The notes beneath the pieces are model-generated. The model ran no database searches. It was given only the letters and a program-made list of their open reading frames with translations, and was not told the DNA's origin. Below are positions 42,217-43,570 of a DNA stretch of 64,000 nucleotides, one piece after another. A program made the translations under genes and the position numbers. Origin of the DNA: an uncultured Candidatus Bathyarchaeia archaeon (lineage in GTDB: Archaea > Thermoproteota > Bathyarchaeia > 40CM-2-53-6); NCBI GenBank assembly GCA_964394935.1, contig CAYMZN010000002.1, positions 6,360 through 70,359 of the forward strand, read 5' to 3'. The stretch's first letter is position 1, and every line of letters starts with the position of its first letter.

Positions 42217-43570
42217 TCATTGTCGGATCTTGATGTACTCGTAGGCTGACCGTGCGGTCTCGAACGCGTAGTGCACCTTCTGGAAATCCTTGCGGAACAT
42301 CGCAACATCGGCCTTGACTCTTCCAGGAGGTTCCTTGTCGACGATCACGCGTTTGATGAACTCGGCCACCTCGACCATCTGTGACCGCTTCATGCCGAGA
42401 CGCGTGATCTCCGAGACGCCTATGCGTATCCCGCCAGGGTTCTGGTAATGTCGTCCGGCCTGAATGTCGCCTGGAAGTAGTTGTCGGTTCACAATTATGT
42501 TCGCCTTCTCCAGAGTCCTCTCAATGTCTCCTCCGAGGCCGTACTTGCTCGTATCAACGGCGATCTGATGCGATTTCGTGAATCCTTTGCTCTCCGCAAG
42601 TGTGTTCAGGCCACGTTCATGCAACGCTTGCCCCAGTGCTTGAGCGTTTGCAACGATCTCGGATGCGTACTCGCGACCGAACTCTAGCATCTCTGCAAAC
42701 GCGACGGCCTTCCCCGCGACGGTGTGAAGGTGATGGTTGCTCGTGTTTGACGGGAACGTGGCCTTCTTGATCTGTTCAGCATACTTCTCAAATGAGACGA
42801 CAGCACCGCCCTGAGGGCCGAAGAGGGTCTTGTGTGTGCTCATCATCATGATGTCCGCGCCCTCCCGGAGCGGGTCTTGGAACTGTCCACCCGCGATCAG
42901 TCCAGAGACGTGAGCCGCATCGTATGCAACCGTGCATCCAACCCCGTGGAAATATTCGGCGAGCTCCTTGACCGGGTGCGGAAAGAGGAACAGGCTTCCC
43001 CCAAATGTTGCAAGCTTTGGACCCTTCCCATCCTTGATCATCCTGTCAACTCTGCCCTTGGTCTTATCGGGATCGATGTTCATCTCGTTCCGGTCAAAGA
43101 CGAAGTACTCCACGTCGAGGCCGTGGACACTACCGGCGGTTCCGTTGAAGTCCCTCTTTCCCATGGAGATGTGACCGCCGCTCGGGATCGCCAAAGCCAT
43201 CATGACATCTCCGGGGGACGTGAACGCCGTGTAGGCGACCAGGTTGGCACAGACACCAGACACCGGGCGGACATCAACGAACTCTGCACGGAATAGCTGC
43301 TTCGCTAGGTCAATGCAGATCTGCTCGACCTGGTCAATGTACACGCATCCAGCGTAGACTCTCTCCCCAACCCAACCATGCAGAGGCTCGGCCACGAAGG
43401 CACGACGCCTATTCTGCGTAGCGGTTACCGAAGTCAGAAATCACTGCTTCGCGGACCGCCGGGCTGGGAACGTTCTCGGAAGCAATTAGCGGAATGCTCT
43501 CCGAGAACCAGCTGTGATGCTGCTCGAGCAGCTCGAAGACCTTCTCATACGAGCTCCTGGCAGAACTCAC
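42217..43570 (-). CDS. glyA: serine hydroxymethyltransferase, interrupted by a 34-nt BHB-type intron (exon 1 43412..43570, exon 2 42217..43377)
   Basis: Exon 2 holds GCVYIDQVE, VRPVSGVCAN, the STHKTLFGPQGG PLP-Lys block and HHLH. Exon 1, in another frame, encodes [53 protein letters not shown] and then stops at TAG. The spliced product is 439 aa. Confidence 0.85.
43378..43411 (-). other. putative bulge-helix-bulge intron in glyA mRNA
   Basis: RNA: ...CUAC[GCAG](AA|U)[AGGC]GUCGUGCCUUCGUGGCCGA[GCCU][CUGC](AU|G)GUUGG... It has a 4-bp central helix, two 3-nt bulges on opposite strands and a 4-bp inner helix. Cuts after the second bulge nucleotide join GAA|GGU in frame. Confidence 0.7.

Follow-up and report, generated by a model that had tools for sequence, protein, structure and literature searches.

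In the 64,000 nucleotides (nt) of DNA analysed in this work (referred to below as the window), which are from an uncultured Candidatus Bathyarchaeia archaeon (contig CAYMZN010000002.1 of assembly GCA_964394935.1, positions 6,360 to 70,359), the glyA gene for serine hydroxymethyltransferase (SHMT) is interrupted on the minus strand by an insert of 34 nt at 43411..43378. It is highly probable that this insert is a pre-mRNA intron with a relaxed bulge-helix-bulge (BHB) motif, cut by the splicing endonuclease EndA and sealed by RtcB, in the same manner as the cbf5 pre-mRNA intron of Crenarchaeota (Watanabe 2002; Yoshinari 2006; Yokobori 2009). On this interpretation, cbf5 and glyA would be the only two protein-coding genes of archaea for which the evidence of a BHB-type intron is strong. 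Since 2002 an endonuclease-dependent intron has been confirmed for cbf5 and for no other archaeal gene that encodes a protein, and as of papers from 2020 and 2025 the cbf5 intron is the only one reported within an archaeal coding sequence. The literature consulted agrees with the initial annotation of this DNA, made from the sequence alone, in which such introns were held to be established essentially only for cbf5, and no report linking SHMT or glyA with BHB introns was found in the open-access literature. What would be new here is the host gene, viz. a core enzyme of one-carbon (C1) metabolism, and its occurrence in a lineage other than that of cbf5, one that is uncultivated and abundant worldwide. 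Whether or not the splicing of pre-mRNA in archaea is confined to cbf5 can now be tested directly, and the 76 natural variants described below supply evidence from covariation and can at once serve as substrates for biochemical work.

The split gene and inserts at the same site in related glyA genes

The glyA gene is present on the minus strand as two exons around the insert, and the order of its parts is 43570..43412 (exon 1), 43411..43378 (insert) and 43377..42217 (exon 2). These parts are as follows.

43412..43570, minus strand: glyA exon 1, GTG start, 53 codons, ending in ...GNRYAE with the GAA codon at 43414..43412 (open reading frame (ORF) list, translation, tblastn match of residues 1-53)
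43378..43411, minus strand: putative mini-intron of 34 nt, UAGGCGUCGUGCCUUCGUGGCCGAGCCUCUGCAU, the first codon of which is an in-frame UAG stop
42217..43377, minus strand: glyA exon 2, opening with GGU UGG GUU, 386 codons and a stop (ORF list, translation, tblastn)

Across this region the minus strand reads GGU AAC CGC UAC GCA GAA, followed by UAGGCGUCGUGCCUUCGUGGCCGAGCCUCUGCAU and then by GGU UGG GUU GGG GAG AGA GUC UAC GCU GGA UGC. In the ORF list, the gene appears as an ORF of 53 amino acids (aa) at 43409..43570 (minus strand), whose C-terminus GNRYAE is followed by TAG, and an ORF of 392 aa at 42217..43395 (minus strand), which is in a different frame and starts at a GTG inside the insert. 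When the joined protein was compared with the window by tblastn, two matches were obtained at a distance of 34 nt, one for residues 1-53 (frame -1) and one for residues 54-439 (frame -2), which bears out the statement in the initial annotation that the gene is split, and no second copy of glyA was seen in the 64-kb window in this search. The removal of exactly 43378..43411, which had been proposed to restore the frame, does so: it joins GAA↓GGU (here and below the arrow marks the junction or the predicted cut) and gives an SHMT of 439 aa. The joined protein matches profile positions 6-399 of the 399 in the Pfam SHMT family in one stretch (residues 9-394) drawn from both exons, with the main part of the match falling in exon 2, and when it is aligned with an archaeal SHMT of solved structure (4uqv/4bhd) there is no gap at the junction, where the segment on the structure side is DFMHRYAEGLPGKRLYQGC. 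Its closest full-length relatives are uninterrupted 439-aa GlyA proteins of Bathyarchaeia that are 92-93% identical, and at the boundary in question they read GAA↓GGATGGGT; among the full-length proteins that were retrieved, none showed >93% identity to the spliced product of the window. Based on the sequence, the ORF list, the tblastn result and the joined translation, the coordinates and the junction that were originally put forward are correct. The break falls within the contiguous RYAEG active-site motif, exactly between codons and directly after the codon for its Glu, which we take to be the catalytic residue.

Inserts at this site were found to be common in related genes. Metagenome contigs were scanned for GNRYAE followed by any 15-45 nt and then GWV, a pattern that is blind to the reading frame and to the sequence of the insert. 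Parsing of the matches yielded 76 distinct inserts in a true glyA context, all of them at the GAR↓GGN boundary of Bathyarchaeia-type glyA genes, and the other matches had no SHMT context, i.e. they were chance matches. The inserts are 29-36 nt long (the length is divisible by 3 in 35 of them and not in 41), the lineages that host them are 76-92% identical in protein, and the contigs stem from peat and sediment samples. Samples in which such contigs occur include ENA ERZ27245483 and ERZ27245621, JGI 3300022551 and 3300025144, and the Ga0187771, Ga0187774 and Ga0315279 series. An in-frame UAG starts the insert in 73 of these variants, and in the three remaining ones the first stop is intron codon 3. 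The genotype of the window was recovered in two independent ENA assemblies (L201 and L202); the identical 34-nt insert is present in L081-83, L201 and L202, and a 2-nt variant of it is found in L084, L104 and L193, so that the six contigs beyond L201 and L202 extend this insert to other samples. The only differences between the intron of L084 and that of the window type are two U-to-C changes, one at an unpaired bulge position and the other at a loop position. In L085, from a lineage that is ~77% identical, an unrelated 33-nt sequence is located at the same boundary, and in L086-89, from a lineage ~79% identical, a 36-nt insert is present and the exon GCGG and intron CCGU replace GCAG/CUGC. 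Further, close relatives lack the insert precisely at this place. The putative intron in the window is, based on this comparison with related glyA genes, one member of a widespread family of Bathyarchaeia glyA introns and not a one-off. In one ENA sample (ERZ27245483), L084 and L201, whose GlyA lineages are ~92% identical, co-occur and each carries a 34-nt intron.

In public gene calls, these genes appear as 53/54-aa entries named 'glycine hydroxymethyltransferase' and as ORFs of 384, 391, 392 or 411 aa with arbitrary starts. Examples of mis-called split GlyA entries in the public protein collection are P0121, P0122, P0026-28, P0075, P0099 and P0110, and the contigs for several of the GlyA calls that are shortened to 384-392 aa carry an insert at the same boundary. 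SHMT is thus systematically mis-annotated as truncated in the intron-bearing clade, and metabolic reconstructions could score the enzyme as truncated or pseudogenised in these genomes.

The sequences of both exons bear on the functional state of the gene. Between the window and other intron-bearing lineages, the ratio of nonsynonymous to synonymous substitution rates (dN/dS) is 0.08-0.13 for exon 1 and 0.04-0.09 for exon 2, at dS values of 0.3-1.0. These ratios indicate that both exons are under strong purifying selection, and no additional disruptions of glyA were seen in the intron-bearing lineages. The insert itself is more conserved than synonymous sites, as the intron of the window lineage differs at only 0-2 of its 34 positions from those of lineages for which the dS of glyA is 0.5-1.0. 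In comparison with L081, L082 and L104, a zone of ~110 nt (~43320..43430, minus strand) contains 1 substitution, versus ~5 per 30 nt elsewhere in glyA. The low number of substitutions could reflect a constraint at the RNA level that reaches into the exons, or it could result from local gene conversion between co-occurring lineages, which is conceivable because L084 and L201 share a sample.

In a distance tree based on a MAFFT alignment, the intron-bearing genes are found in one clade of 79 leaves. Nested within it, as the sister of the group containing the window, are six intronless sequences (L001-5 and L009), and due to this position they point to precise loss of the intron; since the sampling favoured intron-bearing contigs, the frequencies of genes with and without the intron carry no meaning. 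The codon usage near the junction in intron-bearing versus intronless genes (UAC 59/59, only GCG/GCA, GAA 58/59) is suggestive, but it is not used here as evidence, as the contrast is confounded by AT-rich Nitrososphaeria, which dominate the intronless set. The Bathyarchaeota metagenome-assembled genome CAVPLU01 contains two intronless copies of glyA on different contigs (L005 and L021), of which the copy in L021 shows a frameshift near residues 313-321 that is likely explained by an indel from long-read sequencing or by mixed strains.

Fold of the insert, its covariation and the proposed splicing mechanism

The elements of the fold that place the splice sites are listed below; H and h' denote the central and the inner helix, respectively.

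43414..43417, minus strand: 5' strand of central helix H, GCAG, formed by the Ala codon and the first G of the Glu codon of exon 1; its partner is 43380..43383
43411..43413, minus strand: 5' bulge A-A↓U; the 5' cut is predicted to separate 43412 from 43411
43407..43410, minus strand: 5' strand of inner helix h', AGGC; its partner is 43384..43387
43388..43406, minus strand: apical hairpin of the putative intron, with UCG/CGA and GCC/GGC stems and a UUCGU loop (minimum free energy (MFE) fold, comparison of variants)
43384..43387, minus strand: 3' strand of inner helix h', GCCU
43380..43383, minus strand: 3' strand of central helix H, CUGC, within the putative intron
43377..43379, minus strand: 3' bulge or loop A-U↓G; the 3' cut is predicted to separate 43378 from 43377
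43375..43376, minus strand: 3' strand (G, U) of a short outer helix with the pairs C43418-G43376 and A43419-U43375

If this fold is formed in the transcript, the GCAG at the end of exon 1 would pair with the CUGC at the 3' end of the intron to give a central helix of 4 bp, on one side of which the intron hairpin (AGGC.../...GCCU) would be stacked. The 5' splice site would then lie in the 3-nt bulge AA↓U and the 3' site, AU↓G, in a bulge or loop closed by 1-2 exon-exon pairs. We infer cleavage by EndA, ligation by RtcB and splicing in vivo. EndA would measure the 4-bp helix and cut after the second nucleotide of each bulge, and RtcB would join the exons at GAA↓GGU, so that the conserved RYAE-GW codons are restored and a full-length SHMT of 439 aa can be made. 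The predicted spliced junction reads ...CGCTACGCAGAA joined to GGTTGGGTTGGG (also written CGCTACGCAGAA joined to GGTTGGGTTGGGGAG). RtcB would probably also circularise the intron, and the junction in the circle would read ...GCCTCTGCAT joined to TAGGCGTCG.... Because the intron begins with a stop codon, the unspliced mRNA would yield a peptide of only 53 aa. In one study, EndA and RtcB were reported for every near-complete archaeal genome that was examined, inclusive of those from Bathyarchaeia, and circularised rRNA was detected in Bathyarchaeia in the same survey.

The fold is retained in the related genes. All 76 variants can adopt one and the same drawing, viz. helix H, a 5' bulge of 3 nt, an inner hairpin, and a 3' splice site 2 nt past H. 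Helix H is made up of exon GC[G/A]G and intron C[C/U]G[U/C]; it has 4 bp in 72 variants, while in the other four a G·A mismatch leaves it with 3 bp, and 98.7% of its cells in the MAFFT alignment of the variants (A1) are paired. The third pair of H is G-C in 69 variants, A-U in 6 and G-U in 1, i.e. the third, synonymous position of the Ala codon in the exon shows covariation with the intron (GCG with CCG[U/C], and GCA with CUGC, with one G-U intermediate), and the switch from G-C to A-U is seen in at least two separate clades. The 5' bulge is AAU in 72/76 variants and AAA or AGU in four, and it comprises three unpaired nucleotides in every one. The inner helix starts with A-U and G-C, and its first four pairs, which covary, are 95-100% paired. 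One example of such covariation is provided by the pairs 16/40 (A-U in 54 variants, G-C in 19) and 17/39 (C-G in 54, A-U in 10, U-G in 5, U-A in 3) of A1.

The BHB model pairs 82% of the cells in A1, as compared to 33-45% when the partners are slid by 1-3 columns, and none of 500 column shuffles reached the observed covariation score. Without an imposed structure, RNAalifold recovers both helices, H and the inner one, together with the 5' bulge of 3 nt, and with 36-nt flanks it adds a distal exon-exon pairing, ACC/GGU, beyond an internal loop. A covariance model built from the 76 variants (R1) gave, with filters off, a single hit in the window, which is the glyA site (55.7 bits, E 8e-10). The features expected for an EndA substrate, viz. 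a central helix of 4 bp and a 3-nt 5' bulge between H and h', are both present, and if each bulge is cut after its second nucleotide, the result is GAR↓GGN, i.e. RYAE↓GW, in 76/76 variants. The initial annotation had noted for the window that the cleavage rule (a cut after the second bulge nucleotide) predicts the junction that restores the frame, and applying the rule, which Yokobori 2009 states for cbf5, indeed gives GAA↓GGU.

However, there are several points which weigh against this interpretation. The fold was earlier described as a canonical hBHBh' motif, and all of the pairings named in that description are possible (GCAG/CUGC for H, AA↓U and AU↓G for the two bulges, AGGC/GCCU for the inner helix), but the 3' bulge is not closed by an outer exon-exon helix in the way a strict hBHBh' motif has it. 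In the window the outer helix at the 3' site is only 2 bp long, and among the variants the C-G pair next to this site is invariant (76/76) while the A-U pair is present in only 4/76. Since the outer helix thus consists of a single invariant C-G pair, the motif is of a relaxed kind, HBh' or bulge-helix-loop (BHL), which has been described for substrates in Crenarchaeota and still belongs to the BHB family, and the cutting of relaxed motifs depends on the subunit architecture of the host EndA. In the unconstrained MFE fold of 76 nt, the register differs from that of the BHB model, as a 5-bp GCAGA/UCUGC helix is formed with no clean 3' bulge (z = -1.76), and in a context of 106 nt the BHB register costs ~4 kcal/mol (-35.4 versus -39.5). 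BHB-like motifs of the relaxed kind are also frequent: a scan that requires 4 bp for H, 3 nt for each bulge, no fewer than 4 bp for the inner helix and an intron length of 15-120 nt finds ~1600 of them per 64-kb strand, and equally many in shuffled sequence, due to which the fold alone is not significant; at one given pair of site and length, the chance of such a motif is ~2.4e-4. The variants are related by descent, so that the counts of cells given above overstate the number of independent compensatory events. Lastly, the exact spliced proteins of the window, of L081/L084 and of L085 are absent from a collection of 15 billion proteins. What goes beyond chance is that the motif coincides with the junction defined by homology and is kept, with covariation, in the 76 variants.

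Weighing of other explanations

Some other explanations would leave the insert in the mRNA. In translational bypassing, the ribosome would leave at GAA, hop over the 29-36-nt hairpin gap and resume at GGN with no RNA processing, and the anatomy of the insert resembles a bypass site: known bypass gaps are short, have a stop codon after the take-off codon and a hairpin at their start, and need not have a length divisible by 3, and here the gap is short, a stop directly follows the take-off codon in 73/76 variants, a hairpin is located at the start of the gap, and many of the lengths are not multiples of 3. In phage T4 gene 60 and the mitochondrial byps, a coding sequence is likewise interrupted by a short non-coding gap, at the start of which are a stop codon and a hairpin. 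However, bypassing requires the landing codon to be the same as the take-off codon, and unlike T4 gene 60 and byps the glyA genes show no such match, as the last codon of the gap is UAG, CAG, UAU, UAA, UUU or others and in 0/76 variants GAA or GAG. Further, a covarying 4-bp helix between the end of exon 1 and the 3' end of the insert, as well as fixed 3-nt bulges, are predicted by the BHB model and not by bypassing, which we therefore regard as very improbable. A similarly slight chance is given to a two-piece enzyme, in which unspliced mRNA would give rise to the N-terminal peptide of 53 aa and, from a start of its own, to a C-terminal protein of ~390 aa, and the two would assemble into an active SHMT. 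The GTG inside the insert of the window opens the 392-aa ORF that gene callers report, and both parts are under purifying selection. However, ATG, GTG or TTG codons in the frame of exon 2 are present within the insert in only 5/76 variants (ATG in 1), the ORFs that have been called begin at differing places (384, 391, 392 and 411 aa), the break is inside the contiguous RYAEG motif, and the covarying exon-intron helix is left without an explanation. Recoding of the stop codon, where UAG would be read through or as pyrrolysine and the insert translated as an extra loop, could draw upon a tRNA-Pyl(CUA) call by ARAGORN in the window and upon the 35/76 inserts that are in frame. It is nevertheless extremely unlikely, as the 34-nt insert in the window shifts the frame, 41/76 of the inserts are out of frame, and it is the RNA pairs that are conserved and not the peptides encoded by the inserts.

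It is also conceivable that the insert is removed from the RNA by a nuclease and ligase other than EndA and RtcB, or by some other processing route which recognises the hairpin. The lack of a proper outer helix at the 3' site, by which the motif departs from a canonical EndA substrate, speaks in favour of such a route. However, the dimensions match the EndA ruler exactly (the helix has 4 bp and the bulges 3 nt, and the cuts give an in-frame junction in 76/76 variants), relaxed motifs of such kind are known substrates of the (alpha-beta)2 and epsilon2 forms of EndA, and we know of no alternative archaeal mRNA-splicing system, so that this route appears quite improbable. An inactive gene or an artefact, i.e. 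an insertion scar or a misassembly with glyA being a pseudogene, might be suspected because the gene as it stands is frameshifted and relatives 92-93% identical to it lack the insert. Such an origin has hardly any probability in view of the occurrence of the same genotype in independent assemblies (L201 and L202), the 76 variants at one boundary, the dN/dS values of 0.04-0.13 on both sides with no further disruptions, and the conservation of the insert beyond that of synonymous sites. A helix that covaries between the end of exon 1 and the 3' end of the insert is predicted neither by bypassing or a two-piece enzyme nor by pyrrolysine recoding or an inactive gene or artefact.

Within the interpretation of the insert as an EndA-dependent intron, it may be asked whether the glyA mini-intron is kept as a control point and is not just a passenger that is tolerated. 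This is considered doubtful, and it is suggested by the intron being ancient in a large clade of Bathyarchaeia, by its position after the Glu codon of RYAEG, by its start with a stop codon, and by the ~110-nt zone that is poor in substitutions. If it were true, the output of SHMT and the C1 flux would be coupled to the activity of EndA and RtcB or to the conditions for RNA folding, and the circle formed by the excised intron may itself have a role. It would suggest as well that annotation understates how common BHB introns are in the protein-coding genes of uncultivated TACK archaea.

Comparison with known introns and the rest of the window

The introns of cbf5 are 16-44 bp long, contain a relaxed BHB motif and are cut between the second and third residues of the bulge, as confirmed by cDNA (Yokobori 2009, PMC2738675). 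The glyA inserts share with them the interruption of a conserved coding sequence by a short element (16-44 bp in cbf5, 29-36 nt in glyA), whose length is independent of the reading frame, being in some cases a multiple of 3 and in others not. Also shared are the relaxed BHB-like motif with predicted cuts between the second and third bulge nucleotides, a location in or beside the codon for an active-site residue (the break is within the catalytic Asp codon in cbf5 and after the Glu codon of RYAEG in glyA), a patchy presence and absence among relatives, which implies gain as well as loss, and mis-annotation by gene callers as split or frameshifted genes. However, cbf5 encodes an RNA-modification enzyme and its intron is found in Sulfolobales and Desulfurococcales, whereas glyA encodes a central enzyme of C1 metabolism and its hosts are uncultivated Bathyarchaeia. 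The cbf5 intron lies within a codon and the glyA intron exactly between codons, and a further difference is the start with UAG in 73/76 glyA variants. The splicing of cbf5 has been confirmed by cDNA and by in vitro cleavage with EndA, whereas the splicing of glyA is what we infer from comparative evidence.

Similar to the BHB introns of archaeal tRNA and rRNA, the glyA insert has a 4-bp helix between the end of exon 1 and the 3' end of the intron, 3-nt bulges and an internal helix, and its size is within the range of 11-175 nt for archaeal tRNA introns (PMC2738675). Unlike these introns, it is not set in the body of a tRNA or rRNA, it has almost no outer helix at the 3' site, and its exon strands are constrained by coding. 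In the HVO_1309 mRNA of Haloferax volcanii, a BHB element is located in the 5' untranslated region (Schwarz et al. 2020, PMC7714728). This element is an mRNA substrate of the splicing endonuclease, as the glyA intron would also be; however, it lies in an untranslated leader where no reading frame is interrupted, whereas the glyA intron interrupts the coding sequence and the protein requires its removal.

In the rest of the window, the scan for BHB motifs that would fuse long ORFs left 95 candidates after filtering, which are essentially noise, and no second intron was found in this manner. The best-looking of the candidates, which was rejected, is a BHB-like stretch of 34 nt starting with TGA at 5523..5556 (minus strand), which is the spacer between two adjacent genes and no intron. 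Its flanks are an ORF of 463 codons and an ORF of 188 codons, representing an amidohydrolase-like gene and a MobA-like gene; the upstream gene ends in ...MKMRE* and the downstream, MobA-like gene starts with ...IVLAAGKSTRM. The tRNA-Pyl with the anticodon CUA that ARAGORN places at 54096..54170 (plus strand) is probably a false positive, as it is antisense within a 656-aa ORF for an OB-fold (RPA-like) protein (53659..55629, minus strand) and has no Rfam tRNA match, so that the window offers no evidence for the decoding of pyrrolysine; in the whole window, there were 0 matches to Rfam families at the gathering threshold.

In the neighbourhood of glyA, beyond a divergently oriented methyltransferase gene (43657..44379), there is an ORF of 539 aa (44387..46006, minus strand) in which the domain of a pyridoxal phosphate-dependent enzyme (PALP) is followed by a C-terminal winged helix of the PadR type, i.e. 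a fusion of an enzyme with a regulator. In L081 (3128..4216) and L084 (3090..4178), an IS66-family transposase is present ~1.5 kb downstream of glyA, and in the genotype of the window (L201) its place among the neighbours of glyA is taken by Sec61-beta and a gene with a metallo-beta-lactamase fold.

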